A stretch of DNA of 64,000 nucleotides. Origin: a candidate division WWE3 bacterium (GTDB lineage Bacteria > Patescibacteriota > 4484-211 > GCA-002791395). The DNA lies in contig JAAXWF010000001.1 in the NCBI GenBank assembly GCA_013335095.1, positions 86,797 through 150,796 on the forward strand, in the 5' to 3' direction. Position 1 is the stretch's first letter. Each line of letters begins with the position of its first letter. Below are positions 471-20,162 of this stretch, in pieces. The position numbers were made by a program, and so were the translations under genes. The notes beneath the pieces were generated by a model. It did not search any database and was not told the origin of the DNA. It saw nothing but the letters and a program-made list of their open reading frames with translations.

Positions 471-497
471 AGGGAAAACCAGACTAACTTATAAATT

Positions 498-3216: not shown

Positions 3217-3288
3217 GACCGTATTATACAGAAACAGTAACCGTTAGCAGCGAAAATCAATTTAGAATGAAATATGTCGAAAACAGGT

Positions 3289-3648
3289 TTATGATACAGA
3301 TTTTCGCAGTATCGCTTCCATCTTTTTTCCTTTGGCGAGTTCGTCGATGAGTTTATCGAGATAGCGGATCTCTTGCATAGTTGGTTCTTTGATCTCTTCG
3401 ACACGAATACCACAGATTGTTCCGGTTATAAGAGTTCGAGATGGGTTAAGCTGTGGCGCGTGAGCAAAAAAGGTTTCAAAGTCGGTCTGTTTTTCAAGCA
3501 ATTCATCAAGTTCTTGCTGACTATACCCGGTTAACCAACGGATGATCTCATCGACTTCGGCTTTACGTCGTCCTTTCTTTTCGACTTTGGCTATGTATAA
3601 AGGATATACTCTCGCAACGGACATGGTGTAGATTCGCGGTTTTGTCAT
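3289..3648 (-). CDS. DUF2200 family protein
   Basis: [42 protein letters not shown] resembles the DUF2200 N-terminal consensus. The start is preceded by an AGGAAGG RBS on the minus strand. Confidence 0.6.
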
Positions 3649-3732
3649 AGCACCTTCCTGTTTAGTAATTGTAGCATTTAGCACGTAAATGAGTTGCAAA
3701 GCTGAAAATGACAAGAATTAGCGTTTATTATT

Positions 3733-4236
3733 TTATTCGCCGGCTTTTCTGATGGTTTCGAGGTCGATCTTCTTCATTGGCATAAATGCAGCGGTTACGG
3801 CCTCGGCTTTTTGTGGGCTTTCTCTCATCATTTCATCCAAAATTCTTGGAACGATTTGCCACGTGACTCCAAATTTGTCGGTACACCATCCACATTGTTC
3901 CGCTTCTGGCACCGCTGAAAGTTTTTCCCAGAAAAAATCAATTTCTTCTTGTGTTTCGCACTCAACGATATAGGAAGTCGATCCATTTAGTTGGAATTGT
4001 TCAACCGGACCACCATTAAGAGCCATAAAGCTGATTCCATCGAGTTCGCATTCAGCGGTCAAAACAGATCCTTCGGGTCTACCGGATACTTCTTCGGATG
4101 CTTTAGGCGCTTTGGTGATATCGCCGATCTTAGCGTCATGATTACCTGGCGCTGATTTAAACGTGTCGATATAGTATTGAACGGCCTCTTCGCCATCGTT
4201 GTTGGCAAACCAAATGCAAGTAATAAGTCTACTCAT
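3733..4236 (-). CDS. VOC/glyoxalase-superfamily protein (PhnB / 3-demethylubiquinone-9 methyltransferase-like domain)
   Basis: N-terminal CIWFANNDGEEAVQYY and C-terminal CGWCTDKFGVTWQIVP match this domain family. Confidence 0.7.
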   Translation of the reverse strand: MSRLITCIWFANNDGEEAVQYYIDTFKSAPGNHDAKIGDITKAPKASEEVSGRPEGSVLTAECELDGISFMALNGGPVEQFQLNGSTSYIVECETQEEIDFFWEKLSAVPEAEQCGWCTDKFGVTWQIVPRILDEMMRESPQKAEAVTAAFMPMKKIDLETIRKAGE

Positions 4237-4355: not shown

Positions 4356-4784
4356 TTATGTAGTTTCAGAATATTCGATGATCCACTCGATACCGTATTT
4401 GTCTCGGAACATACCTGCATACGATCCCCACGGACTTTCTCCGATAGGCCCCTCGACTTCGCCTCCAATTGAGAGTCCATTGAATAGTCGATCGGCCTCT
4501 TCTTTGCTATCGGTATTTACCAATATTTTGCTTCGATTTTCACGCTCATTTACGCGCCCCATGACTTCTGGAACATCATTGGCGATCAACAGAGCACCAT
4601 TACCAATCGGTAAAGCGATATACATTATTTTATCCTCTTCCTTTTCAGGCACCGAGAATTCATCACTCGCGAGATCTTTAAAGCGCACAACCTTGGTAAA
4701 CTCTCCCCCAAAAACGGATTTATAAAACATAAATGCTTCCTGCGCATTACCGTTGAAATTAATCCAAGGATTTAGTGTTGTCAT
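4356..4784 (-). CDS. VOC family protein (PhnB-like)
   Basis: INFNGNAQEAFMFYKSVFGG ... DKYGIEWII fit the same fold family as the adjacent gene; the two are tandem. Confidence 0.65.
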   Translation of the reverse strand: MTTLNPWINFNGNAQEAFMFYKSVFGGEFTKVVRFKDLASDEFSVPEKEEDKIMYIALPIGNGALLIANDVPEVMGRVNERENRSKILVNTDSKEEADRLFNGLSIGGEVEGPIGESPWGSYAGMFRDKYGIEWIIEYSETT

Positions 4785-4810
4785 ACGTTAATCATATCAA
4801 ATTAAAGAAT

Positions 4811-4858
4811 ATACACATGGGTCTGCGTGGTGAACGTAGTTAGAACTTATTTTAGCAC
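4811..4858. repeat. degenerate copy of the tRNA-Asn 3'-end/att-like repeat (distal island boundary)
   Basis: tgggtctgcgtggtgaacgtagttagaacttattttagcac aligns at about 32/40 with 9210-9250, tggctccgcgtgatagacgaagttagaactcttttaagcac. It also shares atacacatgg with 12651-12660. Confidence 0.4.
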
Positions 4859-4975
4859 TTCACCTCAAGTACCCACACAGAGTCATTAGTTGGCAGTTGA
4901 GAGCCGGGTACGTCGTCAAAACTACCTGGTTTTTCCATACATCCGACAATAATTAGTTTATAATTCATACCAGCT

Positions 4976-5443
4976 ATGATAAAAGACTTAACCGCTTCGA
5001 GAACTGACCGACAAAACATTCTTAATAATCATTTCGCTATAGAAATGATCCAAGATAATATCGGATATAGAGGAGTGCTCTTTGAGGGAGAATATCGCTA
5101 TACGAAAAGGCAACTGGCTCACTTCTTTGACGTAAGTATAGCCACTCTAGAACGTTATCTAGAGAAATATGAAAAGGAATTAAGGGAAAATGGGTATGAA
5201 GTGCTCACGGGGAAAAGGCTCAATGAAGCCAAGAAACACCATGTCACCCTCATCGGTGAGGGTGAGAAAAAAGCCCCTTCCTTAGGTGTGTTTAATTTTC
5301 GCGGATTTCTTAATTTAGCCATGTTATTAGTCGAAAGCGATAGAAAAAATAATACAGAACTATCCAGGCTATATCTATATCCCAGACTTAAGACCAAATT
5401 TCGCTCCAATTACCCTGGGAAAAATTTGTTAAAGTTGTTATGA
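4976..5443 (+). CDS. hypothetical protein, first gene of the island cassette (possible DNA-binding, ORF6N/KilA-N-like, low confidence)
   Basis: The segment YRGVLFEGEYRYTKRQLAHFFDVSIATLERYL is reminiscent of phage-associated DNA-binding domains. No strong RBS is present. Confidence 0.4.
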   Translation: MIKDLTASRTDRQNILNNHFAIEMIQDNIGYRGVLFEGEYRYTKRQLAHFFDVSIATLERYLEKYEKELRENGYEVLTGKRLNEAKKHHVTLIGEGEKKAPSLGVFNFRGFLNLAMLLVESDRKNNTELSRLYLYPRLKTKFRSNYPGKNLLKLL

Positions 5444-5462
5444 TTAGGTAGACGGTAAATAT

Positions 5463-6488
5463 ATGAGTACTCATGCAATCAACCAACAAATCAGAGACAG
5501 AATATTTAGGCTTAGTGGTAAAGAATTCCAACAATTAGTGTGGGATATTTTAATAAAAATTTATCCTGACCTTCAGACTCCAAAAATGAATCATGATCTA
5601 GGGAACGATGGTTACAGCATAAGCGAGAAAGCATTTTTTGCAGTTTATGCTCCAGAATTAGCTAAATACGATAATGAAACAACCAGAAAGAAGATTTCCA
5701 ATCCTACCCCTAATCAATCTGAAGAAGTCGGTGATTATGAGAAGTTTATAGCAAACTGGAAAGACAAGTTTGGATTTACCAAGTGGGCTTTCATTACAAA
5801 AGAAAACCTGATGGGAAATCCGCATCAGAAGATTGCCGAACTAAATCAAAACGGCGATGGTGTTGTTAAAGAGCATTGGGGCGTTGAGCAGCTAATTGAA
5901 AAGGTAATGGGGCTAGAGGAGAGTGTAATTCGTGGGCTGTTTGATTTGGAAGCCGATATCACTGTAAACCAGCTAAATCTAGGTATTGTTAATAACGGAA
6001 AGACACATGTCGAAAAACAAGCCCAAATGTATAATGAATACAACAATTACGGCACTAGTGAAGAAGATGAAAATACTGCAGTCGATGAGATTTTTGATTA
6101 CGTGATTTCCCAACTACCACAAACACCAACAATTACTCCAGCTGATGACAGACAAATGCAAGTTAAGGCTAAAATCAAGCTAAATTTCTCTGTCGAAAAA
6201 GAGCAACTCGAAGTCGAGAAATACTTTACCTCTGCTTATACGAAAACAAAATTGATTGAAAATAAACTACAAGCCTTGGACCCAACTATTCAGGGAGATA
6301 TACAACTACACATTTTGCAGAAATATAACGAGTTCAAAAGGAATAGCCAAACGAGTATTGAGATATTAGATAAACTATTCAGCTTTTTTACACCCAAGAA
6401 AAGAGAGAGAAATCCAACCTTTGCAGCAGTAATAAGGGCTTTCGTGCTTTTATATTTTGAAGACTGCTCAATTTTTGAGAAAGAATAA
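5463..6488 (+). CDS. candidate effector of a three-gene cassette (N-terminal restriction-endonuclease/Mrr-like region, alpha-helical C-terminus)
   Basis: FQQLVWDILIKIYPDL...DLGNDGYSISEKAFFAVYAPE resembles an Mrr-type nuclease core. Its stop is 1 nt before the next start. Confidence 0.5.
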   Translation: MSTHAINQQIRDRIFRLSGKEFQQLVWDILIKIYPDLQTPKMNHDLGNDGYSISEKAFFAVYAPELAKYDNETTRKKISNPTPNQSEEVGDYEKFIANWKDKFGFTKWAFITKENLMGNPHQKIAELNQNGDGVVKEHWGVEQLIEKVMGLEESVIRGLFDLEADITVNQLNLGIVNNGKTHVEKQAQMYNEYNNYGTSEEDENTAVDEIFDYVISQLPQTPTITPADDRQMQVKAKIKLNFSVEKEQLEVEKYFTSAYTKTKLIENKLQALDPTIQGDIQLHILQKYNEFKRNSQTSIEILDKLFSFFTPKKRERNPTFAAVIRAFVLLYFEDCSIFEKE

Positions 6489-6489
6489 A

Positions 6490-6714
6490 ATGATCATACC
6501 AACAAAACATGAGGACATCCAGAAAAGCTCTCTAGTTATTGGAGCTGAGGTTATAACTTATCTCAAGAAGAATGGCAGTGAAAATATCGAGAAGCTTTTT
6601 CAGTTATTCAAGAATAAAATTGGAATAGGCCTAAATCAATATCATAATGTTCTTACTGTGTTGTGGTTAGGTAAGATAATTACAATCAGGGAACATAGGA
6701 TTTATCTAGAATAA
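6490..6714 (+). CDS. small middle-component protein (~75 aa) of the three-gene cassette
   Basis: The start ATG 6490 lies 1 nt after the upstream stop, and the stop lies 1 nt before the ATPase start. Its size and position match the middle component of ABC-3C systems. Confidence 0.45.
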   Translation: MIIPTKHEDIQKSSLVIGAEVITYLKKNGSENIEKLFQLFKNKIGIGLNQYHNVLTVLWLGKIITIREHRIYLE

Positions 6715-6715
6715 T

Positions 6716-8476
6716 ATGTTATTAAAAAAATTGTATGCTGAACCAGCAGGATTGTTTGAACTAGTTGAATTCCGTGACGGCATTAACTTTATTTTTGGAG
6801 AGAAAAATGCAACCTCTGACCCTAAAGAATCATTAAACGGGATAGGTAAATCTACCTTGCTGGATCTTGTCGATTTTTGTCTTCTCTCTTCTTACACACA
6901 AAACCATAATCCGAGGCTGTTTTCAGCAAAAGATATCTTGGCAAGCCACCTTATTGTCTTAGAGTTCGAGGTAAATGACACAACCTACATCATAAAAAGG
7001 AGCGTTGAGACACCAAACTCTGTATTTTTTGGTACTACTGATTCCATAAAAGAATACTCGAGAAAAGAATTAGGCTCGATTCTTACAGACCTTGTGTTTA
7101 AAAAGGGAGACTATCCTGGAATTTATTCCGACAAATGGTGGAGAAAGTTAATCAACTTCTACCTCAAAGTTCAAAGTCAAAAGAAAGCGAAGTTTACAGA
7201 GCCAGTTAAATATATTGATGAACTAAGTGTTGCTGAATTAAATCAGTATCTCTTCTTCCTAATGGGATTGGACAACACCCTGGCATATAAAAATTTTGAC
7301 ATACAGTGGAATCTAAAAAAGCGTAATAAGGCGATAATAGAGGTAAAACAAATTGTAGAGGAAACTTATGGACTCAAAGATATCTCTGAAGCATCCAACC
7401 AAGTCGATAAACTAAGCCAAGAAGTTAAAGATATAGAAAACACTATCTCTCAGTTTAAGCTATCTACCCAGTATGAAGACGCTGAGAAACAAGCCAACAT
7501 ATTAACCGCGCAAATCAAAGAATTGTGGTTTCAAAACTTTTCAGACAGAAAGAAAACCGATGCATATAAGGACAGTTTAAAACTGGATGTTGATATTGAC
7601 ATAGCAAAGGTAAAAAGGGTCTATGAAGAGTTTAATCAACTCCTTGCAGATAAGGTGTCCGCAACCCTTGAACAAGCCATCCAGTTTAGAAAAAACCTGG
7701 TTAATTCAAGGAAGGACTTCATTAGTTCTGAGATAGAGTCGCTTGCCAAACAAATTAAAGACAGAGAGAGCAAAATTTCACAACTGGAAACAGACAGAGC
7801 CAAGCTGTTTTCGTTCTTATCCAACAAGGAGGCAATTAGTGATCTTTCAGACGCGTACTTGCATCTTAGTAGGAAAAAGGATCAGCAGGGAGAACTGACC
7901 GGTAAGGTTAGGCTATATAACGACCTACAGAAGGAAAAAGCAGATCTAAAAATTGAAGCAGCAAAAATTGAAAAATCAATGTATGACTTTATTGAAAAGA
8001 ATACGGATTCTGTTTCTGAGTTTAGAACAGTATTTCGAATGGTTTACAACGCTATATATCCAGATACCAAGGATGCTTCAATGTTCTCAATTGACATAAA
8101 GCCCAACACCGATGCAGTTATGAATATTGATATCACTTTTCCTGCAATGTATTCAAAAGGTAAAAATCAAGGAAGGACACTGGTTTTCGATTTAGCGGTT
8201 CTAGTAAACTCAATACAAAAGAGCCTACCTGGACCAAGGTTTGTGGTCCATGATGGCATTTTTGATGGCATGGACAAAGCACATTTTGTTTCACTGTATC
8301 AGTATCTAGAAGACCTTAAGACGAAAATGAGGTTTCAGTATATTGTTACGCTTAACGAAGAAGGTACTCTGAGCGAAAAATTCGGCGACGTGGATGAGCT
8401 AAGTCCTGAAAAAATTAAATCACATGCACTAATAGTGCTAACTCCAACGAGAAAACTCCTTAAAAGTGATTTCTAG
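6716..8476 (+). CDS. SMC-like ABC ATPase with central coiled coil (ABC-3C / Lamassu LmuB-like)
   Basis: The N-terminal P-loop is LNGIGKSTLLDLVDFCL. A coiled-coil region of ~220 aa follows. The C-terminus has Walker B/D-loop FVVHDGIFDGMD and an H-loop-like QYIVTLNEE. Confidence 0.75.
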   Translation: MLLKKLYAEPAGLFELVEFRDGINFIFGEKNATSDPKESLNGIGKSTLLDLVDFCLLSSYTQNHNPRLFSAKDILASHLIVLEFEVNDTTYIIKRSVETPNSVFFGTTDSIKEYSRKELGSILTDLVFKKGDYPGIYSDKWWRKLINFYLKVQSQKKAKFTEPVKYIDELSVAELNQYLFFLMGLDNTLAYKNFDIQWNLKKRNKAIIEVKQIVEETYGLKDISEASNQVDKLSQEVKDIENTISQFKLSTQYEDAEKQANILTAQIKELWFQNFSDRKKTDAYKDSLKLDVDIDIAKVKRVYEEFNQLLADKVSATLEQAIQFRKNLVNSRKDFISSEIESLAKQIKDRESKISQLETDRAKLFSFLSNKEAISDLSDAYLHLSRKKDQQGELTGKVRLYNDLQKEKADLKIEAAKIEKSMYDFIEKNTDSVSEFRTVFRMVYNAIYPDTKDASMFSIDIKPNTDAVMNIDITFPAMYSKGKNQGRTLVFDLAVLVNSIQKSLPGPRFVVHDGIFDGMDKAHFVSLYQYLEDLKTKMRFQYIVTLNEEGTLSEKFGDVDELSPEKIKSHALIVLTPTRKLLKSDF

Positions 8477-8664
8477 TCCCATGTGTTGGTTTGTGTGGCA
8501 CATTCGTGTCTGAAATGGCTAAGTCCACCGTTATTTAGCTTCAAACGGCTCGTTGAGGACGTTGTGAGCCGGTGTGAGCCAATGTCTTGAGTAGCTTCAC
8601 TTGGAGTTCAATAAACGCCACAAAAGACCGGAAAATAAAACGTTTGAGTGTTTTCATAGAAACC

Positions 8665-9156
8665 TTAACGCATGCGGGCCCTAGCGATGGGTCCTTCAAG
8701 CTCGTTGGAGAAGTTGATGAGTTGGCCACCGTTGGTAAAGGCAACACTCAGGCTAGGCTGCTCTGTGGATTCATAGACCTTGATACAAGGAACTCCATTA
8801 TCGTTAAGATATAAGGCAGGAGCGTTCTTGTCTAAGTCCTCACTACAAGTTTCGGTAGGTGGATCTAAATGGACAGTTCTGGCTTCTCCCTTCCAAATGA
8901 GGAAATAATTTACCCTACCACTTCCGCCATCTTTCTTGCCGGTCTCTAGTGTTAATTTTGAGAGATCGATGTTTCCCAAAGCCACTGAATGCTTGGTAAT
9001 AAAGTTACGACCCAACTGCTCGACTACTGCTTGGCTGTATTTGCCACTGTAGTCATATTGCTTTTGATCACTAAACCAACGTGAGCCATCGGCTTTATAT
9101 CCCCAGGTCCCAGGAGTCTCCTCAACCTTTATGATATGGTTTGTTACAGAATTCAC
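8665..9156 (-). CDS. hypothetical protein (island cargo)
   Basis: A 163-aa ORF with normal composition and no recognisable motifs. Confidence 0.5.
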   Translation of the reverse strand: MNSVTNHIIKVEETPGTWGYKADGSRWFSDQKQYDYSGKYSQAVVEQLGRNFITKHSVALGNIDLSKLTLETGKKDGGSGRVNYFLIWKGEARTVHLDPPTETCSEDLDKNAPALYLNDNGVPCIKVYESTEQPSLSVAFTNGGQLINFSNELEGPIARARMR

Positions 9157-9162
9157 AACAAA

Positions 9163-9219
9163 ATACGTAGAAAACTTTTTAATATGTTGGTAAATACAGA
9201 AGATAATAATGGCTCCGCG
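9163..9219. repeat. 57-bp perfect direct repeat copy 1 (contains the last 10 nt of tRNA-Asn plus 47 nt of its 3' flank): att-like junction
   Basis: It is identical to 12678-12734. It ends with tggctccgcg, which is the reverse complement of the tRNA-Asn 3' end including CCA. Confidence 0.8.
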
Positions 9220-9307
9220 TGATAGACGAAGTTAGAACTCTTTTAAGCACCGGCGACCCTAGGGATCGGACTTGAGTTTGATAGTTAGATAGCAGTATAA
9301 TTTTGGT

Positions 9308-9934
9308 ATGCGTTTGAAAGAAAACCGTGGAGACGTTAGCTTAGCCTTAATAATAGTTGTAGTAGTCCTTGTTTTGGGAGCAGGTGCATACTTATTCTTT
9401 AATGGAAGCCTTATAGATGGAAATGAAGTTACTCCTACACCAACAACCACTACCAACACCCCATCTCCCACAGTAAATAGCAATATGAAGCCCTACACTC
9501 AAGCTGGGGTAGATTTTAGTATTCCCACAGATTGGTATATTGCTAGTTTCTCCACAGACTCGCATCTATTTCTATATAGTTTTCCAGAGGATAAATCCAA
9601 TCCTGCACTCACATATGATAGTGTGCATCCCGCCCCTCAAGGAGAAGCTAAATTTGAGATACTAAATCGGTCAAAATCAAGCTCGATTGCTCTCGAAGAA
9701 TGGCTAAAAACTAGGGCGGATAATTATGACTATTTTGGGGATAGAAACTACTCAATATTTGAAAAAATCGAGATCGGAAATACATCAGGTTTCAAATTAG
9801 TTAGTAGCATGTCCAGCCAGCCTTTCTACGTTTTCCAAAATGGCTCAGGAGATAAGTACTTCATAATCTCAGGTAACGAAGATAGCGTATACAAACAGAC
9901 TCTAGAACAGCTTGTTTCTTCTGTAAAAGCTTAA
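9308..9934 (+). CDS. membrane-anchored secreted protein (signal anchor, Thr/Pro linker, globular domain)
   Basis: LALIIVVVVLVLGAGAYLF is followed by TPTPTTTTNTPSPT. The architecture parallels the 498-1223 protein but lacks the pilin G-F-x-x-x-E motif. Confidence 0.55.
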   Translation: MRLKENRGDVSLALIIVVVVLVLGAGAYLFFNGSLIDGNEVTPTPTTTTNTPSPTVNSNMKPYTQAGVDFSIPTDWYIASFSTDSHLFLYSFPEDKSNPALTYDSVHPAPQGEAKFEILNRSKSSSIALEEWLKTRADNYDYFGDRNYSIFEKIEIGNTSGFKLVSSMSSQPFYVFQNGSGDKYFIISGNEDSVYKQTLEQLVSSVKA

Positions 9935-10035
9935 GTAATTAATCTGTATTCTATATCATTGACTATAATCTGTTTATAGGTTAAGAAGATTAAGCGTAGT
10001 AGCAATCGGCATATTCACAATGGAAGAGGTGTATT

Positions 10036-12558
10036 ATGCGGGCATCGTATCGCAGGCGGTGGCAGCTGCTGTTTATACTCATGCTACTTTCTGCATGGGT
10101 ACCTTCAGCTGCACAGGCAACGGATCCTCCATCAAAGAGTTTTCGGTTTCCATGGACTGCTGGAGTGCCGTGGGTCTTCACAGGAGGGCCTCATGTTAGT
10201 GGCACTGGCAACACCATTCGCTCAGCTCTAGATTTTCAACCTAAAAACCAGGATCCCCGGGTACGCGCGGCGGATGGTGGAACTGTACTAAGCACGGATG
10301 ATGGTACTGGCAACATGTACATCGATCATGGAGGCGGATGGGTAACTTTTTACGCGCACATGGACAGCTTTACTGTCTCGGCTGGGAACCACGTCGATCG
10401 AGGCGATGTGGTTGGAGTGGCGGGTAGCAAAGGTACGAATAACATCCATTTGCACTTTGGCGTTCGTTACAACAGTCAGTGGCTAGAAATCGCTGGAGGT
10501 GGGGTCGATTTAGAAGGGTGGACGGTCGTAAAAGAGCCTGCAGTGTACTACGGATACCTCAAGAAAGGTTCCGCTCAGGTCTCAGCATGTTATGACTGTA
10601 CTCCCCTCCCTACTTTTGCGTCTGCGGAGTCGGATCCAGAGCAGGGTTACCCACGGTTAGACAGCACGGTGGAGCTTAGTCCCAATCCCGTAGTGGGGCA
10701 GGCTAACTTTTACCTGAGCTTCTGGCTGAAGAATGGCGGTGGTTCTGATTTTAGTGTCGGCGATGTAGTTATCTCTGGCACTTCGGCCAGCGGAGCGGCA
10801 TGGGATGCAGGTTGGAGTGGCACTCAAGTTATCGCTGCTGGTGATCGTAGATCGTTTCAACTCATCGGCACGGCGTATAACAATGACTTCGGAACGTGGT
10901 TGATTAAGAAGGAGATCAAGGTTAGAAGATCAGGATCTAACTCTTGGTACACGGCCTTACTGGGAAACTTCCCGTTCCCTGCAAGCTTCACTCACTCAGA
11001 TCCGACAGTACCACCTGTTCTAACGACCAACGTCCAGAACAGTCCAAGCAATCTGTGGGCTGGCGGTGAGCTGCAGTTCGCTTTCACTTTACAAAACCCT
11101 GGCTCAAGTGATTTTGATATCGAGGAGATCTTTATCAAAACCACTACTCCAGGCGGCGCGGAGTGGAAGTTTAACGCAACTCCAACTATCATCCCAGCAG
11201 GTCAGAGTCGTGACTTCGTGGCAAAGGCATCACTACCCAACGACTCACATGGCTGGTGGAACGTTACCAAGCGGATCGAGGTGAAAAAGCGTGGTGGTGG
11301 CTGGTACGGCATTGAGCAAGGACCGCATGCTTTCGCAGCAGAGTTCTATGTCAATCCGTACGACAGCACGGGACCAACGGTGTCCTTAACCCATCCCGTG
11401 GACAACTACTTCTACACCTACGAGATTCTGGCTACAGCCACTGCCTCAGATCAACAATCTGGGATCAAGCAGGTTGAGTTTCTCTTTAAGCTTGGTAACA
11501 CCTGGCAGACGCTGTGGGTCGACACGGATGGCACCGACGGATATAGCTTCAACTTCCCAGGGAACAGCTATGGCCCGCAATCTGATCTGTGGATTCTGGC
11601 CTATGCGGTTAACAACTCAGGAGTGCGAACGCAATCAGGTGCGGCGCGGTGGATAACCAACGTGGATACACAGAACCCTTCGGTGAGTGTCTACGGACCA
11701 TCGAGCGGCCAATCGTTTTCGGGTGACTACATCGACGTGTATGCTAATGCCAGCGATAACGTAGGAGTCGATCGTGTTACCTTCTACCTCGGCTATCCAG
11801 GCGGCGGCCCCGTCCCGATAACAGATGCCAATCCTGCTGACGGGTGGTCTGCTCGATTCGATATCCGTGACCTGCCCAATATGACCGGCATGTACGTCAA
11901 TGCCCATGCCTTTGACGCGAAGAACAACCGAGGCGATTCAGGCGCCATTAGCAGCTTGTCAATTGCTCGGTCGTGTCCTTGCTTCGAAGGTATTCGCACA
12001 GGGCAGGGATTTGGCAACACGATTGATGCTGTCTTAAACGTCCCGACCTCAGCAAACTGGGTAAACTTGTACCTGACCCCGCAAGGGCAAGGATTCAGAG
12101 GTGCTGGTGCTGTAAAGGGAGCTGACGGTAAGTGGCGAGCATCATGGAATGTGAGTGATTTGCCGGAAGGTGCAATACTCATGCTGGATGGTTGGATTGG
12201 TTATCCAAATGGCCAACAGCAGACACCAGTACTTACCGGTATGAAGATCGATCGGACAAATCCGACGATGCACCTTACGGGTCCAGGGTCTGGAGCGATC
12301 TTCAACAACACGGTTACGGTGACGGCTTCTGCAGAGGATCCGAACAACGGTAGCGGGGTCGAGAAGGTGGTATTCTACTTCGCATGGCCAGGGAATAGTC
12401 TCCCGGCAATTGTTGACTCGGACGGAAGTAACGGGTGGCAAGCGACCTTTGACACCTCAACGCTCGGACCGGGGAGCTACCGTCTCGATGCGTGGGTATA
12501 CGATAAAGCTGGAAAAGGAAGTCCATCACCTGAGGTCTGGTGGATAACTAAGAACTAG
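10036..12558 (+). CDS. secreted M23/LytM-family metallopeptidase with three C-terminal Ig-like (Big-type) domains
   Basis: The M23 core is HMDSFTVSAGNHVDRGDVVGVAGSKGTNNIHLHFGVRY, preceded by a signal peptide. Three repeated ~90-aa modules each contain ...P(S/T)(V/M)...G...SDxxSG(I/V)(K/E)xVxF(Y/L)... The region is visibly GC-rich. Confidence 0.8.
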   Translation: MRASYRRRWQLLFILMLLSAWVPSAAQATDPPSKSFRFPWTAGVPWVFTGGPHVSGTGNTIRSALDFQPKNQDPRVRAADGGTVLSTDDGTGNMYIDHGGGWVTFYAHMDSFTVSAGNHVDRGDVVGVAGSKGTNNIHLHFGVRYNSQWLEIAGGGVDLEGWTVVKEPAVYYGYLKKGSAQVSACYDCTPLPTFASAESDPEQGYPRLDSTVELSPNPVVGQANFYLSFWLKNGGGSDFSVGDVVISGTSASGAAWDAGWSGTQVIAAGDRRSFQLIGTAYNNDFGTWLIKKEIKVRRSGSNSWYTALLGNFPFPASFTHSDPTVPPVLTTNVQNSPSNLWAGGELQFAFTLQNPGSSDFDIEEIFIKTTTPGGAEWKFNATPTIIPAGQSRDFVAKASLPNDSHGWWNVTKRIEVKKRGGGWYGIEQGPHAFAAEFYVNPYDSTGPTVSLTHPVDNYFYTYEILATATASDQQSGIKQVEFLFKLGNTWQTLWVDTDGTDGYSFNFPGNSYGPQSDLWILAYAVNNSGVRTQSGAARWITNVDTQNPSVSVYGPSSGQSFSGDYIDVYANASDNVGVDRVTFYLGYPGGGPVPITDANPADGWSARFDIRDLPNMTGMYVNAHAFDAKNNRGDSGAISSLSIARSCPCFEGIRTGQGFGNTIDAVLNVPTSANWVNLYLTPQGQGFRGAGAVKGADGKWRASWNVSDLPEGAILMLDGWIGYPNGQQQTPVLTGMKIDRTNPTMHLTGPGSGAIFNNTVTVTASAEDPNNGSGVEKVVFYFAWPGNSLPAIVDSDGSNGWQATFDTSTLGPGSYRLDAWVYDKAGKGSPSPEVWWITKN

Positions 12559-12567
12559 ACCTACAGT

Positions 12568-12602
12568 GCGCTGATGATAGACCCCATCAGCGCTTTTTTA
12601 TT
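12568..12602 (+). terminator. rho-independent terminator after the M23 peptidase gene
   Basis: Hairpin gcgctgatg-atagacccc-catcagcgc followed by ttttttatttc. Confidence 0.6.
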
Positions 12603-12677
12603 TCTTGATAACCAATTTTCAATCATACAATTAAGTTAGTACTATTCAACATACACATGGATGGCAAAAAACTTTAT

Positions 12678-12734
12678 ATACGTAGAAAACTTTTTAATAT
12701 GTTGGTAAATACAGAAGATAATAATGGCTCCGCG
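12678..12734. repeat. 57-bp direct repeat copy 2 (overlaps the 3' end of intact tRNA-Asn)
   Basis: Identical to 9163-9219. Confidence 0.8.
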
Positions 12735-12800
12735 GGTAGGGCTCGAACCTACGACATCCTCGTTAACAGCGAGGCGCTCTACCGACTGAGCTACCGCGGA
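12725..12800 (-). tRNA. tRNA-Asn (anticodon GTT)
   Basis: The reverse complement folds as a cloverleaf: TCCGCGG acceptor stem, anticodon loop CTGTTAA, T-loop GGTTCGAGCC, and a 3' CCA. It closely resembles E. coli tRNA-Asn. Confidence 0.9.
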
Positions 12801-12946
12801 TCATTGAGAACAAAAACACTACTAAGTAGCGTCACGGGTATTGTATCACTCAAATGAAAGGCCTATCAAGGCGCTATGGCTACCAAACAAAAAAGGCCGG
12901 AAGGAAAACCCTCCGGCCCAATATTTACACCTTTTATTTTTTTAAA

Positions 12947-13474
12947 CTAACGCATCTTCTGCCGAATCCACGCGATAACCTCGCCCGGCACATCGCTCTC
13001 GGCATCGCATTCGAACGCATGTCCGAGCAATTCGCGGGCAATCGCAAGATCAAGCTCCATGCCATGCCCGACATCACCAACAACAAGCCCGGTCTCCGGA
13101 TCGCTAAACCGATATGCCGTAACAGTCGCATGGGACAGCCCCTTGGCATTGGGCTCACCCCATGTAATCTCCGGCTGAATCACCAGATACCCACGCATTG
13201 GCAAATAGCCATGCAATACATGGATACCATTGAACACCGGGTTACTGCTCACCCGATCACCAATACGGATTTGGTTGCGATGAACTGCAATCCAGTATTC
13301 GCCGACCATGATATCGGTTCGACGAGCTGCGACACCACGTTCACCACGCACAATCACTTCGCCGTGATGATACGACTGGATTAAGCTAGTCACGTCACCC
13401 GAGTGAAACCCGACAACCCGAAAAGTAGGACCCTCTAGCTGCACAGAATCCTGCGCTCCAACTGACGCGACCAT
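12947..13474 (-). CDS. hypothetical protein (GC-rich block)
   Basis: A 175-aa ORF with protein-like composition. The overlapping plus-strand ORF 12854-13384 is judged to be antisense. Confidence 0.45.
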   Translation of the reverse strand: MVASVGAQDSVQLEGPTFRVVGFHSGDVTSLIQSYHHGEVIVRGERGVAARRTDIMVGEYWIAVHRNQIRIGDRVSSNPVFNGIHVLHGYLPMRGYLVIQPEITWGEPNAKGLSHATVTAYRFSDPETGLVVGDVGHGMELDLAIARELLGHAFECDAESDVPGEVIAWIRQKMR

Positions 13475-13549
13475 AAAGCGCCTCCTGACTCATGGCCTAT
13501 AAAGCATCTCAATTATAAAATGAAAAAACAAAAGAATCAAACTATAGGA

Positions 13550-13768
13550 TTAGTAACCTAAATCGGTGCCTAATTGATTTGCTTTACGCTCTTCTAACTG
13601 AGTGAAAAAATCAGTCCGCAACGCCCCATCAAACGGTAATAACTGCTCTGGAGGCAATGCAATCGGCGTAGTATCAGCCTGGGTATGCATAACCTGAAAA
13701 ATAATAATTGCGACTAAGAAGACGCCTGTCGCAATCGATAAAATAAAGTAACGACTCTTTCCTTTCAT
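13550..13768 (-). CDS. small membrane protein, last gene of the pilN-pilO operon
   Basis: A single TM helix. Its start overlaps the upstream stop by 4 nt. Confidence 0.4.
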   Translation of the reverse strand: MKGKSRYFILSIATGVFLVAIIIFQVMHTQADTTPIALPPEQLLPFDGALRTDFFTQLEERKANQLGTDLGY

Positions 13769-14427
13769 TGTACGGTAGAACCTCCTTCATCAAAATAATA
13801 AAATGAACCTTCAACGACCAGCGTTAACTCTGAAGTTAAGTTACCACCATTATCCGAAGAATCTAGATTAATTGAAAGGGTATCAATCTTTGCGATACGT
13901 GGCATATTCTCCAAACGCTGAACAAAACCACGAACACCTGTATAATCTCCCATCAACTTTAAAGTAAACCCTAACGTCTTTTCACTACCCTTAGTTTTCG
14001 TTGTCGTAGTTGCAGTACTTTGCGACGATGTCGAACGAGTTTCGGTACGTGCAGATGCAATGCCACCGTAATCTAATGATTCAACGGTTAAATTATTCGT
14101 AGCAATCGCTAAATCGAGCTCATTAACAAAATTAACAGCTCGTCGGTCTCGCGGCACCGCGTTATCTGCTAACACCTGATTCGTGGTCTGTTGAGCTAAT
14201 GTCTGCTTGGCCTGTTCGATGGCAGCGACTTTTAGCTTTAATGCTTCTTCATTTTGGCGTGCTGTAGCAATCGCGGTCTGAGCACTCATCGCTCCACGAA
14301 AAGCCGGAACAAACCCAAGCCCAAACAACACCACAATCCACAATGCGGTAACACCAATACCAACATATCGTTGGCGCGGGTTCACACTTAACAATTCATC
14401 TCGGTAGCGATTTACGTATCCGTTCAT
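13765..14427 (-). CDS. pilO: type IV pilus assembly protein PilO-like
   Basis: N-terminal TM helix, a coiled-coil segment (ARQNEEALKLKVAAIEQAKQTLAQQ), then a C-terminal domain. Translationally coupled to pilN. Confidence 0.55.
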   Translation of the reverse strand: MNGYVNRYRDELLSVNPRQRYVGIGVTALWIVVLFGLGFVPAFRGAMSAQTAIATARQNEEALKLKVAAIEQAKQTLAQQTTNQVLADNAVPRDRRAVNFVNELDLAIATNNLTVESLDYGGIASARTETRSTSSQSTATTTTKTKGSEKTLGFTLKLMGDYTGVRGFVQRLENMPRIAKIDTLSINLDSSDNGGNLTSELTLVVEGSFYYFDEGGSTVQ

Positions 14428-15026
14428 TTCAAATTAATATCAAACGCAAACACGACCTGATCGGTCTGAAAATCATCGTTGGCATCCTGGGTTAAATTAC
14501 GTTCAACCTTTTTAAGTGTAACTGATTCCACTAAACTATGCTGTTCGAGAGACTTTTGCCATTGATTCACCGACAAATAATCATTGGTGAGTCCTTCAAC
14601 CGACATAACACCTTTTTCAATCGTTAAGCTTATTAAATTCGCTGGCTCGGGAATAGTTTGTTCAATCATTGCGAGCAGTTGATTACGTTCTTTATACCCA
14701 TCGAGCAATCCACCGATCGAAGAAAACTGTGATCGAACACTATCAAAGCTGGCAATAAACGCTTTATTTGATGCAACAACAGCCTGGTTATCCCGGATTG
14801 ATTTATTAATTTGTGAAAGCTGATATTCATTGAACCAACGGTACGCAAAAGCGCCAAGGACGGCAATATACGTGATAAATAAAAGATAAATTCCAGTTTG
14901 GAAGAACCAGAATACATATGGATTTTCAACGGTCTGCTTTAGCTCAGCTGACGGAATAAAGTTAATACCATTATTCTGTTGGGGCATGGTACTTACAGAG
15001 TAACACCGATCATAAAGCCGAGTCAA
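14424..15026 (-). CDS. pilN: type IV pilus assembly protein PilN
   Basis: Carries the conserved N-terminal INFIP (INLLP-like) motif followed by a TM helix. Confidence 0.65.
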   Translation of the reverse strand: MTRLYDRCYSVSTMPQQNNGINFIPSAELKQTVENPYVFWFFQTGIYLLFITYIAVLGAFAYRWFNEYQLSQINKSIRDNQAVVASNKAFIASFDSVRSQFSSIGGLLDGYKERNQLLAMIEQTIPEPANLISLTIEKGVMSVEGLTNDYLSVNQWQKSLEQHSLVESVTLKKVERNLTQDANDDFQTDQVVFAFDINLK

Positions 15027-15035
15027 GAAAAAAAA

Positions 15036-17573
15036 TTAATCAGATGAAGAGTTCGATAAATCAAACAGACTCACCTGCTGAGCCTTAACCGGTGCAATTA
15101 AACGAGCCTGGTGCGTAACATCTTTAAACACTTGTTCGGCTCTTTTAATCACATTTTTCGGAAGACCGGCAAACTTCGCCACTTGAATACCATAACTCTG
15201 TTGAGTTTTTCCGCGCTTTACTCGATACAAAAAGATTACATCATGACCTTCTTCGGCTACAGCTAAATGATAATTCACAACACCTGGATACATGGCTTCG
15301 AGTTCGGTTAACTCAAGATAATGCGTAGCAAACATAACCTTGGCATTACTCTGTTCAATCAGAAACTCAGAGATTGCCCAAGCGATTGATAATCCATCAT
15401 ACGTACTGGTACCACGTCCAACTTCATCCAAAATAACCAAGCTGCGATCGGTAACATTGTTTAAGATCGATGCAGTCTCGACCATTTCGACCATGAACGT
15501 CGAGAGTCCTTGGGCTAAATCATCCATCGCACCAATCCGCGTATGGATTTGATCAATAATACTAAGATTCATTGCCTGAGCGGGGACAAATGAACCCATC
15601 TGAGCCATGATTACCAGTAATGCGACCTGACGAATATACGTACTTTTACCAGCCATATTGGCTCCGGTCAAAACCATCAATCGCTCATCAGGGTTTAAAT
15701 TGATTGAGTTCGCAACAAACTGTGCATTCAAAATCCCTTCAATCACGGGGTGACGACCTTCTTCGATATGAAGCATATCTTCATCGATAAACAGGGGGCG
15801 GACATATCCTCGCTCACGCGCAACGCTCCCGAGTGAATTGAGTACATCAACCAAGGCCATCAGTGAAGCGACACGCTGATAGATCGTGACATCTTGCAAT
15901 ACCGTTGATACCACATTTCGGTATAACGAAAGCTCAAGCTGGACTGATTTTCCCTCTGAATCGAGCACCTGGTCTTCGTACTCTTTAAGGTCCGGAATTA
16001 TAAAACGTTCGGCATTGGCTAATGTTTGTCGACGAATATAATTATCGGGAACTTTTGATAACTGACTTTTCGAGATTTCAATGTAATATCCAAACACTTT
16101 GTTATAGCTAATCTTTAGATTTGAGATTCCAGTACGTTCTCGCTCACGCTGTTCTATCTGAACAAGAAACTGTTTCCCGCCATGACTGATCTGTCTTAAT
16201 CGATCAAGTTCAGCATTATAACCATCGCGAATATATCCCCCATCGGCAAATTGCAGTGGTGGTTCATCGACAATCGAATCTGAAATTAATCCACGAATCG
16301 CGCTGACCTGCTGCCAATTAATCTCGTTTAACGAATGAGTGATAATGTGCGGTAATTCAAGCTGACACAACATCGAATTAAGCATTTCGGCTTGCTCTAG
16401 GGTAGATCTAATACCAACTAAATCTCTAGGCGTGCCAATATTAATCGACAAACGACTCACATTCCGCTCGACATCAGACACCCGACGCAAAAGTGCTATT
16501 AGATTGGTGCTGAATTCAGTCTGATCTTTTATCCACGAGACCCCATCCAATCGATGATTAATTCGTTCAGGATTTAGAAGAGGTCGCAGCATCCACATCT
16601 TTAATAATCGAGCTCCCATCGACGTATTAGTCCGGTTTAGCACACCAAATAATGAAACATCATCGACACCGGTTCTCAGTGACGAAAATAATTCAAGATT
16701 TCGAATTGTTTGACCCGATAATGTTAAAAAGCCCTCGGGCAAGATTAACTGTGGCGGACGAATAAATCCAATCTCAGTTTTTTGAGTAGTACGGATATAA
16801 TCGAGCGCAGTCGCAAGTGCTACGACTCCAGCAGGTTTATCGTGCAAGCCATAGGCTTCGAGATTCAAAATACGATAATGAGTACGTACCATTTCCTGTG
16901 CATCCGTAAGTTTTGCATACGGTGTTTCATATCGAAACGGCATGGCCCCATTCCGGTGTAACACCCGTGGCCACTCCGAATCGTCATACCATTCAGGAGA
17001 TAGGAGAATTTCGGCAGGCTGGAAACGATTAATATATTCGATAATAATTCGCATCACTGATTCGGCATCGGATGCCTGTGACAATGATTCGGCCGCAACC
17101 AAGACTTCGCCAACTGATGCGGATAATAAGCAGATACCGAGAGACTTCCCGACAACGGAGAAAGTCATTAAATACGCAGTATTATTCGCCGTTTCATTTT
17201 CCTGGATTAATGTACTTGGAGTAACAACACGAATGACCTCTCGCTCTACAATAGTCTTGCCTTTTTGTGGTTCGGTCATTTGTTCAGCTATCGCAACTTT
17301 ATAACCACTCTTAACAAGTCGATTTAAATAACCTTCGGCGGCATGATACGGCACACCGGCCATTGGAGTTGCATTCGGTCCTTTATCACGAGACGTTAAA
17401 GTGATTCCCAAAATGCGGGCAGCAATTTCGGCGTCTTCTAAAAACATCTCATAAAAGTCTCCCATTCGGAAGAATAATATGGCATCCGGATGCTGTGCCT
17501 TGGCCTTCATATATTGTTGCATCATTGGGGTTAGCGATTCAGACGAATCAGACATAGAAGCATTATAAGGCAA
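15036..17573 (-). CDS. mutS: DNA mismatch repair protein MutS
   Basis: N-terminal TPMMQQYMKAKAQHPDAILFFRMGDFYEMF; Walker A GANMAGKSTY; about 845 aa. Confidence 0.95.
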   Translation of the reverse strand: MPYNASMSDSSESLTPMMQQYMKAKAQHPDAILFFRMGDFYEMFLEDAEIAARILGITLTSRDKGPNATPMAGVPYHAAEGYLNRLVKSGYKVAIAEQMTEPQKGKTIVEREVIRVVTPSTLIQENETANNTAYLMTFSVVGKSLGICLLSASVGEVLVAAESLSQASDAESVMRIIIEYINRFQPAEILLSPEWYDDSEWPRVLHRNGAMPFRYETPYAKLTDAQEMVRTHYRILNLEAYGLHDKPAGVVALATALDYIRTTQKTEIGFIRPPQLILPEGFLTLSGQTIRNLELFSSLRTGVDDVSLFGVLNRTNTSMGARLLKMWMLRPLLNPERINHRLDGVSWIKDQTEFSTNLIALLRRVSDVERNVSRLSINIGTPRDLVGIRSTLEQAEMLNSMLCQLELPHIITHSLNEINWQQVSAIRGLISDSIVDEPPLQFADGGYIRDGYNAELDRLRQISHGGKQFLVQIEQRERERTGISNLKISYNKVFGYYIEISKSQLSKVPDNYIRRQTLANAERFIIPDLKEYEDQVLDSEGKSVQLELSLYRNVVSTVLQDVTIYQRVASLMALVDVLNSLGSVARERGYVRPLFIDEDMLHIEEGRHPVIEGILNAQFVANSINLNPDERLMVLTGANMAGKSTYIRQVALLVIMAQMGSFVPAQAMNLSIIDQIHTRIGAMDDLAQGLSTFMVEMVETASILNNVTDRSLVILDEVGRGTSTYDGLSIAWAISEFLIEQSNAKVMFATHYLELTELEAMYPGVVNYHLAVAEEGHDVIFLYRVKRGKTQQSYGIQVAKFAGLPKNVIKRAEQVFKDVTHQARLIAPVKAQQVSLFDLSNSSSD

Positions 17574-17606
17574 CGAGGGAGGATGTGCTCCCCCGCTGCC
17601 CTGATC

Positions 17607-18086: not shown

Positions 18087-18193
18087 TGCGTTACCTCCTT
18101 AAACGAAACACTCCGTTGCCACATCGGACATGATAATTATGCATAACGGTAAAAGCCCCATCTATATCTTTATTAATGCCGTATACTTGGTGT

Positions 18194-19495: not shown

Positions 19496-19507
19496 GGTGC
19501 ATGTACC

Positions 19508-19516
19508 TGATACAAT
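19508..19516 (+). promoter_or_regulatory. putative extended -10 element TGATACAAT
   Basis: The TGnTACAAT pattern lies ~45 nt upstream of ATG 19562, with a GGAGG RBS just before the start. Confidence 0.3.
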
Positions 19517-19561
19517 CAAGCGATACCCCCGACAACCGGAAATTCGATAAGGAGGCACACT

Positions 19562-20083: not shown

Positions 20084-20162
20084 AACTTTATAGCCAAGTA
20101 CAATCTGGACGGCAGGGATCATTCTCTGCCGTCAATTCAACTCCAATCTTGAAACATTCACT

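Follow-up and report, generated by a model that had tools for sequence, protein, structure and literature searches.

What left two stacked foreign segments beside a tRNA-Asn gene in a WWE3 bacterium, an uncultured member of the candidate phyla radiation (CPR), when neither of them carries an integrase? Genomic islands at tRNA genes are textbook knowledge and are credited almost wholly to tyrosine integrases. We analysed the locus within a stretch of 64 kb (the window, meaning the whole of the DNA under study) and conclude that the 8-kb stretch in question probably consists of two recombinase-less remnants of elements that use large serine recombinases (LSRs) to enter the 3' end of tRNA genes. 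The evidence comprises the anatomy of the junctions, complete relatives that bear LSRs, truncated genes and the lack of a recombinase throughout the window. As regards the window alone this is a modest outcome, two islands in decay that make up an ordinary type of genomic scar.

The tRNA-Asn gene and its displaced 3' ends

The target of integration is an intact tRNA-Asn(GTT) gene at 12725-12800 on the minus strand, called in the first-pass annotation and borne out by ARAGORN and by Rfam (tRNA, 71.3 bits). The perfect 57-bp repeat described along with it, which takes in the last 10 nt of the tRNA, also stands. The tRNA-proximal copy (12678-12734) has the 3' end of the intact tRNA as its final 10 nt, the distal copy (9163-9219) matches it perfectly, and with up to three mismatches allowed these were the only two copies in 64 kb, with none in shuffled sequences. 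The final 10 nt of the repeat, TGGCTCCGCG, are the reverse complement of the tRNA 3' end, CGCGGAGCCA; they lie at 9210-9219 and 12725-12734, with a decayed copy at 4818-4827. In the distal copy this decamer is preceded by a 37-nt spacer (9173-9209) and, before that, by 10 nt (9163-9172) of a truncated gene in the neighbouring segment A. Those first 10 nt of the repeat (reverse complement TTCTACGTAT) extend the reading frame of the truncated gene by Ser-Thr-Tyr and differ from the related locus L092, described below, at synonymous sites only. Because they belong to that frame, the 57-bp repeat is not the core of the att site; the true core is 10 nt long, and the other 47 nt, which are not common to the related element in L096, are secondary and specific to the tRNA-Asn locus.

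At the far end of segment A lies a third junction, in which the same parts follow one another in register: a flank (F', 4800-4817) that repeats, in degenerate form, what lies immediately 3' of the tRNA and is identical to 9192-9209 at 12 of 18 positions, a decayed copy of the final 10 nt of tRNA-Asn (O', 4818-4827, TGGGTCTGCG, 8/10), and a 31-nt motif on the plus strand that forms the distal end of the segment (armA, 4828-4858, TGGTGAACGTAGTTAGAACTTATTTTAGCAC). Identity between 4800-4858 and 9192-9250 is 75% over 59 nt, a score that no shuffle reached, and the degenerate third copy of the tRNA 3' end proposed earlier is thereby upheld, spanning 4800-4858. The decamer ATACACATGG, which had been taken to mark both outer boundaries, is indeed present at both, but the local match is not significant (p ~0.08) and has no counterpart in related elements, and we rejected it as a boundary and ascribe it to chance. 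An inverted 17-mer (4824-4840 and 13334-13350) was put down to chance as well; it falls within a coding, GC-rich ORF and shows no extension.

Complete relatives carry large serine recombinases

The relative L094/L096 has the same gene order as the window (MutS, PilN, PilO, a small ORF, tRNA-Asn), and in L096 a complete element of 13.9 kb occupies the same tRNA-Asn site. Its distal junction consists of TGGCTCCGCG at 4010-4019 followed by TGATAGATGAAGTTCGAACTTATTT, which is identical at 21 of 25 positions to the distal end motif of segment B in the window (armB, 9220-9250, plus strand, TGATAGACGAAGTTAGAACTCTTTTAAGCAC), a score reached by none of 500 shuffles. The second TGGCTCCGCG, at 17944-17953, is the tRNA end, and the direct repeat is exactly 10 nt long. 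This element encodes an LSR with the Pfam domains Resolvase, Recombinase and Zn_ribbon_recom; the last 15 nt of its gene lie inside the tRNA, and the gene is interrupted, in two samples. Locus L092 holds an intact LSR of 548 aa with the same three domains, which matches the solved A118, SPbeta and TP901-1 integrases. Its gene runs into a class-II tRNA, a tRNA-Ser, and the distal junction of the element (7453-7495) shows a decayed tRNA end (p ~0.01) followed, in the same register, by the arm-like GAAGCTGGAACTTTATTAGC (p ~0.04). Locus L091, at a tRNA-Trp gene, is a second two-part array with the same arm and no recombinase.

The complete element at the same site in L096 and the L092-like cargo of segment A support the proposal that elements are stacked at the 3' end of tRNA-Asn; the recombinase family would be large serine rather than the classic tyrosine type. 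Classical tyrosine-integrase islands that later lost their integrase genes would carry a similar mark, given that a tRNA gene with a displaced 3' fragment is their standard signature (Islander, PMC4383910) and that 44.5% of tyrosine-integrase elements sit at tRNA genes, against 4.9% for serine integrases (PMC7192596). However, in both complete elements with this junction architecture the recombinase at the tRNA end is an LSR, and a tyrosine recombinase is lacking; the core measures only 10 nt, and the arm shows a 5-bp shift typical of LSR sites. Together these points make a tyrosine-integrase origin very improbable.

The flanks beyond the islands show no homology between the window, L087 and L096, and in L087 synteny is kept up to the tRNA-Asn, yet no repeats lie downstream. 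Searches of viral contigs returned no relatives of the L096 and L092 LSRs and no match to the 57-bp repeat or the arm. A scan of species-representative genomes with MutS gave nothing above 44% identity, and among 5.8 billion proteins the best MutS match reached 66% and the next 51-54%; the collections searched held no genome of the same species.

A conserved arm echoes the tRNA T-arm

At the start of each segment stand ~10 nt from the tRNA 3' end, and a conserved arm of ~30 nt comes next. The motif GTTAGAACTnnTTTnAGCAC occurs in the window only at 4839 and 9231, and among 1.5 Mb of fetched loci a relaxed form of it was found only in the window (n = 2) and in L091 (n = 2, beside tRNA-Trp). At five independent junctions, involving three different tRNAs, the arm directly abuts the tRNA-end fragment in the same register. 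All distal junctions have GAAC at +16-19 from the decamer, and the tRNA side has it at +11-14; in L096 the 7-mer TTCGAAC is shared at an offset of +5, the best of 21 offsets tested. The motif bound to the zinc-ribbon domain of LSRs is known to lie 5 bp nearer the centre in attB than in attP (Rutherford et al. 2013, PMC3783163). On this sequence evidence the arm with its outward-shifted T-arm motif, armA included, is a putative attP-type half-site of an LSR, and the T-arm side of the tRNA (12735 onward) would serve as the attB half-site. The left-hand half-sites (P' and B') showed no convincing shared motif.

Several other identities of the junctions were considered. The junctions fold no better than shuffles into integron attC-type hairpins (z -1.2 to +2.1) and no tyrosine recombinase (IntI) is present, and an integron cassette array was rejected on these grounds. 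Rfam reported only tRNAs at the junctions; neither ARAGORN nor Rfam matched the arm, which was rejected as a decayed tRNA, and a Xer/dif site was dropped when the dif-like 11-6-11 pattern proved unconvincing by eye. If no mobile element were involved at all, the repeats would have arisen by local duplication, and the arm would serve the resident genes as a regulatory motif or terminator; in L091 the arm copies do have convergent genes on either side and T-runs after them, and the 47 extra nt of the window repeat resemble a local duplication. Against this, the junctions have no significant hairpin, the arm keeps its register with the tRNA end across all five junctions and three tRNAs, the L096 arm marks where an LSR element of 13.9 kb, whose 10-nt repeat is perfect, has its far end, and an otherwise unrelated contig contains DNA 91% identical to the segment A cargo. 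This explanation is already largely refuted, and we give it next to no weight.

Cargo of the two segments

Segment A (4828-9162) has truncated genes at both borders. On the left, a 155-aa ORF (4976-5443, plus strand) matches profile positions 1-123 of 338 of a PDC-M59A-like protein, its N-terminal third, and is cut at 5349, where homology to L092 starts. The block that follows (5349-8533, plus strand) shares 91.3% DNA identity with the interior of the serine-recombinase element of L092 (8634-11816 in that locus) and holds the gene trio of a probable ABC-3C (ABC three-component) conflict system. The first (5463-6488, plus strand) encodes a presumed effector of 341 aa with no recognised effector domain and only a weak match to PDC-M68A. 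The second (6490-6714, plus strand) encodes a putative 74-aa middle component, MC6 (E 1.9e-5), at 25.0 bits just below the gathering score of 27.2. The third (6716-8476, plus strand) encodes a 586-aa, LmuB-like ABC ATPase (PADLOC PDC-M68B, 6.6e-72) with AAA_23 and with the DUF2326 feature of ABC-3C systems (PF10088, 9.9e-21, above its cut-off). Farther right, 8483-9172 is 87.2% identical to L092 12704-13393 and ends in the second truncated gene (8665-9172, minus strand), which retains the C-terminal 163 codons and 5 further upstream codons of a gene for a 300-aa secreted or membrane-anchored protein; its N-terminal ~130 codons are absent, as are from the window the 6.6 kb that in L092 lead on to the LSR. 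That 300-aa protein was considered as a hidden recombinase and rejected, since its N terminus carries a membrane anchor or signal and it matches no family, and we regard it as cargo. Segment A had no match in plasmid and phage collections. The element with an ATPase cassette of the first-pass annotation is thus right as to its cargo, an ABC-3C system, which sits in a mosaic with two truncated genes and not in one intact cassette. By these alignments the cargo of segment A is the truncated interior of another LSR element, like that of L092.

Segment B (9220-12677) is 3.5 kb long, with two genes and 264 nt of non-coding DNA. The first gene (9308-9934, plus strand) encodes a 208-aa protein that has a hydrophobic anchor at its N terminus, matches no family and is without relatives at 90% identity; the second (10036-12558, plus strand) encodes a secreted M23 metallopeptidase of 840 aa that bears three Ig-like domains (Big_7). 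The segment had been described as GC-rich with M23 peptidase cargo, which holds for the M23 gene (51-56% GC) but not for the gene of the 208-aa protein, which is host-like (37-41%). Homologues of the M23 gene have high GC in other contexts as well, and the GC content is therefore a trait of the gene family rather than of the element. The inner right end of segment B (12559-12677) is 119 nt of non-coding DNA without similarity to recombinase genes, and neither this end nor the 47-nt extension resembles the 3' end of the L096 LSR gene. An integrase split across the ends of segment B, as in SSV, was rejected, because the 264 nt of non-coding DNA that would join in a circle of B leave no room for it.

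The missing recombinase

Pfam and PADLOC searches over both segments found no integrase or recombinase, Phage_integrase included, and tblastn with the L092 and L096 LSRs, at E up to 10, found no remnant anywhere in the 64-kb window. The earlier statement that neither segment encodes an integrase or recombinase is accordingly confirmed by three kinds of search. As no remnant is detectable in either segment, loss of the LSR gene is something that we infer rather than see, and because they lack a recombinase we file the segments as remnants of the LSR family, not as working members.

Could the segments, B especially, like cis-mobilizable elements (CIMEs) or pseudo-SCC elements, still be moved in trans by an LSR encoded elsewhere in the cell, or in cis with a neighbour, the tRNA anchoring a cassette array? 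Segment B is small, has perfect repeats on both sides and an intact junction of core and arm, and the array at tRNA-Trp in L091 is likewise in two parts, with the same arm and no recombinase. About half of the Dehalococcoides ssrA islands have no integration module, and cis-mobilization has been proposed for them (PMC3146451), and the definition of a CIME (PMC5704250) fits B, both of its junctions being intact and no recombinase present, whereas it fits A only in part, the far junction being decayed (8/10 in the core, 75% in the arm). However, the 64-kb window holds no LSR and no functional neighbouring element, homologues of the B cargo occur in unrelated contexts with neither tRNA nor arm, and neither a second copy of B nor an empty site was found in collections that lack a same-species genome. 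To our knowledge, canonical LSRs recombine attP with attB only, and the site beside the tRNA is a hybrid. Continued movement of this kind seems unlikely, though it deserves to be kept in mind.

The deposited assembly itself might mislead, if segment B were a free circle of 3,515 bp (B plus one copy of the repeat), or a state of part of the population, threaded into the chromosome by the assembler. In the Logan k=31 assembly of run SRR11449211 the contigs break exactly at the repeat, and the contig of B corresponds to window 9190-12707, one period plus the k-mer overlap; these breaks are equally compatible with a circle and an unoccupied site. The deposited 536-kb contig, on the other hand, runs unbroken through both junctions, and the 57 nt that the circle would have in common with the chromosome include 10 nt of the truncated chromosomal gene; such a circle must derive from the integrated form, a state that therefore exists or has existed. 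We consider the circle a quite improbable account of the data.

A scheme for the origin of the array

On our preferred reading, two remnants of LSR elements, the LSR gene of such an element lies at its tRNA-proximal end, running into the tRNA, and crossover would take place within or beside the final decamer of the tRNA gene. The element supplies a replacement for these 10 nt, and the tRNA therefore stays intact, while the displaced 10 nt would land at the far junction, directly before the conserved 30-nt arm. In this arm the T-arm motif (T)TnGAAC lies 5 bp farther from the crossover than in the tRNA. Segment A would be an old mosaic made up of a decayed junction, a truncated gene, a recently shared ABC-3C system and a second truncated gene, the part expected to hold its LSR having been deleted. 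Segment B, with its membrane-anchored protein and secreted M23 peptidase, would be the more recent arrival. That LSRs made both junctions of the window is a deduction, as are this order of events and the origin of the extra 47 nt.

Simple LSR integration yields a 10-nt repeat, as in L096, and does not explain the 47 additional identical nt around segment B, whose 57-bp flanks comprise the 10-nt core and 47 nt outside the att site of the family. These 47 nt may have been copied from the A junction when B lost its recombinase end, or, in a variant of this route, a circle of B may have re-entered by homologous recombination. Alternatively, they may be element ends of identical sequence, the junction on the A side then being the product of a microhomology-mediated deletion.

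Wider meaning

Use of tRNA genes by LSRs is rarely documented, and here three tRNAs (Asn, Ser and Trp) in CPR contigs share one junction architecture. Two of the elements are complete with LSRs, their att core is defined to the nucleotide, and the end motif appears to obey the 5-bp rule, which offers a concrete and testable att-site pair for a tRNA-targeting serine integrase. It is tempting to speculate, as a tentative joint reading, that a clade of CPR LSRs uses the tRNA T-arm as an attB half-site, with element ends that mimic it, switching between targets through the decamer, and arrays built in trans. If so, the element end would mimic the T-arm half-site 5 bp farther out, with crossover ~10 nt from the CCA end; a switch between tRNA-Asn, tRNA-Ser and tRNA-Trp would take a change of the acceptor-side decamer alone; and recombinase-less segments with core and arm (B, and two in L091) would be mobilised in trans into cassette-like arrays. 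The T-arm is conserved across life, and such a system would therefore be a lead for integrase engineering. Mobile elements of CPR bacteria are poorly known, and the present loci show movement of defence genes (ABC-3C, GmrSD) and of cell-wall hydrolases among these bacteria.

Comparison with known systems

In staphylococci, the CcrAB and CcrC LSRs of SCCmec and pseudo-SCC elements insert at the 3' end of a conserved gene, which is kept active. SCC arrays are composite, with short repeats between their members, and recombinase-less members, movable in trans, are common. The target of SCCmec is a protein gene, rlmH, its recombinases belong to another clade and its att sequences are different, and the segments of the window, known from sequence alone, give no sign of present mobility.

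The SCC analogy has also been drawn for the ssrA islands of Dehalococcoides (serine recombinase DsiB, PMC3146451), which share several features with the elements described here. They insert into a small stable-RNA gene at its 3' end and restore the gene, with a short direct repeat of that end at the far edge; their LSR lies at the target-proximal edge, as in our complete relatives; and they form tandem stacks downstream of the gene, with about half of them devoid of the integration module (PMC3146451). The Dehalococcoides target is a tmRNA gene and the core 20 nt long, against a tRNA gene and 10 nt here, and we see no DsiA/ParB/Mom-type integration module. Unlike those islands, the present elements reside in CPR hosts and have a conserved arm that recurs at tRNA-Asn, tRNA-Ser and tRNA-Trp.

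CIMEs and tandem accretion at streptococcal tRNA-Lys and other sites likewise combine retained att sites with loss of integration and transfer genes, and newer elements join the stack where the target end has been regenerated (PMC5704250). They depend on tyrosine integrases and conjugative helpers, whereas the family here is that of serine recombinases and no transfer functions were seen. The islands at tRNA and tmRNA genes found by Islander resemble the present ones in that an intact tRNA, restored by the element, bounds one side and a displaced 3' fragment, directly oriented, bounds the other (PMC4383910). The Islander authors wrote that no serine integrase was known to use a tRNA gene as its target, and they required a tyrosine integrase (PMC4383910), and neither segment of the window would be called by their method, as neither has one. 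In a later survey just 14 of 297 predicted cases had a serine integrase at a tRNA gene, and its authors called for proof by experiment (PMC7192596).

The att sites of the phages A118/LI, Bxb1 and phiC31 provide a parallel for the geometry of the junctions, with a short shared core, half-sites of ~20-25 bp and an outer zinc-ribbon-domain motif 5 bp farther from the centre in attP than in attB (PMC3783163). For these phages attB is found within protein genes or in intergenic DNA, whereas the attB half-site of the elements described here would be the conserved T-arm of a tRNA.

Anatomy of the island at tRNA-Asn

An intact tRNA-Asn(GTT) lies on the minus strand at 12725-12800, as the first-pass annotation had placed it, and two segments, A (4828-9162) and B (9220-12677), are stacked beside it. 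The perfect 57-bp direct repeat described there was recovered at 9163-9219 and 12678-12734; it occurs twice in the window and is absent from shuffled sequences. The final 10 nt of the repeat, TGGCTCCGCG, represent the 3' terminus of the tRNA (CGCGGAGCCA, CCA included), after which one copy runs into the tRNA body (GGTAGGGCTCGAACC) and the other into TGATAGACGAAGTTAGAACTCTTTTAAGCAC, the conserved distal end motif of segment B (armB, 9220-9250). A degenerate third copy had also been proposed, and 4800-4858 indeed aligns with 9192-9250 at 75%: 18 nt of flank-like sequence are followed by a decayed decamer, TGGGTCTGCG (4818-4827), and then by armA (4828-4858), the end motif of segment A. A separate decamer, ATACACATGG, put forward as marking both outer boundaries, did not reach significance (p about 0.08). 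Neither segment encodes a recombinase, in agreement with the reported absence of an integrase, and recombinase genes are absent from the window.

Proteins encoded by the island match NTV30451-NTV30459 (HGA91_00530 to 00570) at NCBI with full identity; these entries come from a 536,166-bp contig of a 'candidate division WWE3 bacterium'. Run SRR11449211 yields the same sequences in its Logan assembly. Two Logan contigs (k = 31), corresponding to window 12705-24427 (L082) and 9190-12707 (L083), end exactly where the 57-bp repeat must break the de Bruijn graph. These breaks confirm that the repeat sequence flanks B on both sides in the reads, and they fit an integrated B or a circle plus an unoccupied site alike. 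Logan contigs of this run are also broken inside segment A, at ~5999-6025 and 8663, where the window holds no repeat, possibly because strains differ within the ABC-3C block. In its gene content the window is consistent with a CPR bacterium. The best relative of its MutS is 66% identical and the next are 51-54% identical, with none above 44% among 185,579 species-representative genomes; sampling of the lineage is thin.

A complete element at the same tRNA

On contig Ga0606628_0000352 from JGI (L094/L096), the order MutS-PilN-PilO-small ORF-tRNA-Asn is kept as in the window, and a large serine recombinase (LSR) gene adjoins the tRNA-Asn, its stop codon lying 15 nt inside the tRNA (...EWLRG*). 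In two samples this gene (L096 16495-17958, L094 4537-6033) reads as a short N-terminal ORF, which carries the catalytic serine, plus a 415-aa ORF, and represents either a pseudogene or a recoding site. The decamer TGGCTCCGCG recurs 13.9 kb from the tRNA in L096, followed by TGATAGATGAAGTTCGAACTTATTT, which is identical to armB at 21 of 25 positions, a score reached by 0 of 500 shuffles. Because the flanks diverge at once, the direct repeat of this complete relative is exactly 10 nt, the core. The L096 junction links the arm with the distal end of serine-recombinase elements using precisely this tRNA position, and comparison with the complete element backs the claimed architecture of integrative elements marked by tRNA-end copies. 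Among the cargo of L096 (4020-17943) are a GmrSD-type restriction enzyme, an EcoRI-type methylase, an HTH_17 (excisionase-like) gene, an AAA_14/DUF4143 ATPase and an MvdD-like ATP-grasp gene. Elements of this family carry defence genes.

Segment A and its relative

Segment A encodes a PDC-M59A-like fragment of 155 aa, an ABC-3C trio made up of a 341-aa protein, an MC6-like middle component (74 aa) and a DUF2326 ABC ATPase (PADLOC PDC-M68), and a 163-aa ORF on the minus strand. These proteins have relatives of at least 90% identity on another contig, L092, where window 5349-8533 corresponds to 8634-11816 (91.3% at the DNA level) and window 8483-9172 to 12704-13393 (87.2%); outside these blocks the flanks are unrelated. 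Both border genes of segment A are truncated, the 155-aa ORF being cut at 5349 and the 163-aa ORF corresponding to the C-terminal portion of an anchored protein of 300 aa. To the right of the 300-aa gene, a further 6 kb of L092 lead to an intact 548-aa LSR (Resolvase, Recombinase and Zn_ribbon_recom domains), which is matched by the solved A118, SPbeta and TP901-1 integrases and whose reading frame enters a class-II tRNA on the opposite strand. In the complete elements the recombinase gene lies at the tRNA end. A candidate far junction at L092 7453-7495 holds a decayed end of this class-II tRNA (p about 0.01) and then GCTGGGAGGAAGCTGGAACTTTATTAGC, which is arm-like (p about 0.04) and in the same register as the arms; the element would then span ~12.6 kb. 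Segment A is the truncated, mosaic inside of a serine-recombinase element.

L092 carries an extra aminoglycoside phosphotransferase (APH) gene between the two shared blocks, bracketed by a ~55-nt direct repeat of 73% identity (11762-11816 and 12698-12754), of which the window has one copy (8483-8540), without hairpin structure. It makes a second instance in which a long local repeat brackets a gene. The 300-aa protein (fragment at 8665-9156, minus strand) belongs to a cluster of at least 90% identity that includes MAGs labelled Shapirobacteria (CPR) and Nanoarchaeota (DPANN), which points either to a very recent transfer by mobile DNA or to mis-binning.

Composition of the 57-bp repeat

The homology between the window and L092 extends 10 nt into the 57-bp repeat, and the Ser-Thr-Tyr frame of the truncated gene is continued by both the window (TTCTACGTAT) and L092 (TTCCACCTAT). 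The repeat is therefore made up of 10 nt from the truncated A gene, 37 nt of spacer and the 10-nt core. Plain serine-recombinase integration would duplicate the core alone, as in L096, leaving 47 nt over, for which two origins remain. In the first, the tRNA-side 47 nt would have been copied from the A junction, either by repair primed on the 10-nt core upon loss of the recombinase end of B, or through excision of a B circle with adjoining DNA and its re-entry by homologous recombination. In the second, the tRNA-proximal ends of A and B would have been identical, with a 10-nt microhomology at the end point of the deletion in A. The two differences between TTCTACGTAT and TTCCACCTAT are both synonymous, a pattern that mildly favours descent from the gene and would fit either origin.

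Arms at another tRNA and geometry of the half-sites

An exact-pattern scan of JGI metagenomes for the arm returned a single contig, L091, whose motif AGTGAACGAAGTTAGAACTTTTTTTAGCAC matches armA at 27 of 29 positions. It lies 525 bp past the 3' end of a tRNA-Trp and is oriented relative to the tRNA as in the window. The sequence before it, TAGCAGGGCA, is similar to the end of the tRNA-Trp, TGGCAGG(C)GC. A second arm-like site (22/29) follows 2.1 kb further on. Across 1.5 Mb of fetched DNA, a relaxed motif was confined to the window and L091, and L091 contains no recombinase gene. This CPR-like contig also has a near-threshold SAM riboswitch match (4774-4867, minus strand; 41.8 bits versus a gathering score of 44.4) upstream of an S-adenosylmethionine synthetase gene.

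In each of the five far junctions, GAAC stands 16-19 nt away from the boundary of the decamer; on the tRNA side the T-loop GAAC stands at 11-14 nt. In L096 the two sides share the 7-mer TTCGAAC at an offset of +5, the best among offsets from -10 to +10. At serine-integrase sites, the motif for the zinc-ribbon domain has been shown to be 5 bp nearer the centre in attB than in attP (Rutherford et al. 2013, PMC3783163). By this rule the arms resemble attP-type half-sites and the tRNA T-arm resembles an attB half-site. The other half-sites showed no clear shared motif.

Segment B and other loci

Segment B encodes a 208-aa anchored protein and an 840-aa M23 peptidase with Big_7 domains. Its description as GC-rich holds for the M23 gene and fails for the rest of the segment. 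Since both homologues of this gene are also GC-rich relative to their own flanks, at loci of which neither has a tRNA, high GC is a trait of the gene family and not a mark of the element. One homologue is a 54% identical M23/Big_7 paralogue just left of the window start (locus: L086, where 3259-3800 equals window 1-542, and window 498-1223), at which the Logan graph branches too; it is followed by tandem 243/241-aa paralogues with a pilin-like N-terminal methylation motif.

Five orphan ORFs with 52-56% GC, in a genome of 35-42% GC, gave no family match: 12947-13474 (-), 19562-20757 (+), 20902-21510 (-), 24719-25192 (-) and 62878-63825 (+). The first occupies the space separating the small ORF from tRNA-Asn, which in the relatives L087 and L096 measures only about 90-200 nt, and it has its own strong hairpin terminator (12886-12918); it thus resembles an insertion upstream of the tRNA.

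Relation to known systems

We propose that elements of this LSR family integrated twice at tRNA-Asn, the newer one (B) beside the tRNA, and that the recombinase modules of A and B were both lost; B may still move with a recombinase acting in trans. What lies in the window is an ordinary array of decayed islands. The family itself is a rarely documented variant, in which LSRs target tRNA 3' ends in CPR and the element carries a conserved end that mimics the T-arm. Serine integrases were stated not to be known as users of tRNA genes proper (PMC4383910); a later survey predicted them at tRNA genes in 14 of 297 cases and noted that 'experimental proof will be required' (PMC7192596). Among described systems, the ssrA islands of Dehalococcoides come closest: the serine recombinase DsiB sits at their edge, the end of ssrA is repeated over 20 bp, and the islands form tandem arrays. 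Roughly half of them have no integration module, and a cis-mobilizable status has been proposed for these (PMC3146451). Further analogues are the SCCmec and pseudo-SCC elements and the streptococcal CIMEs (PMC5704250).
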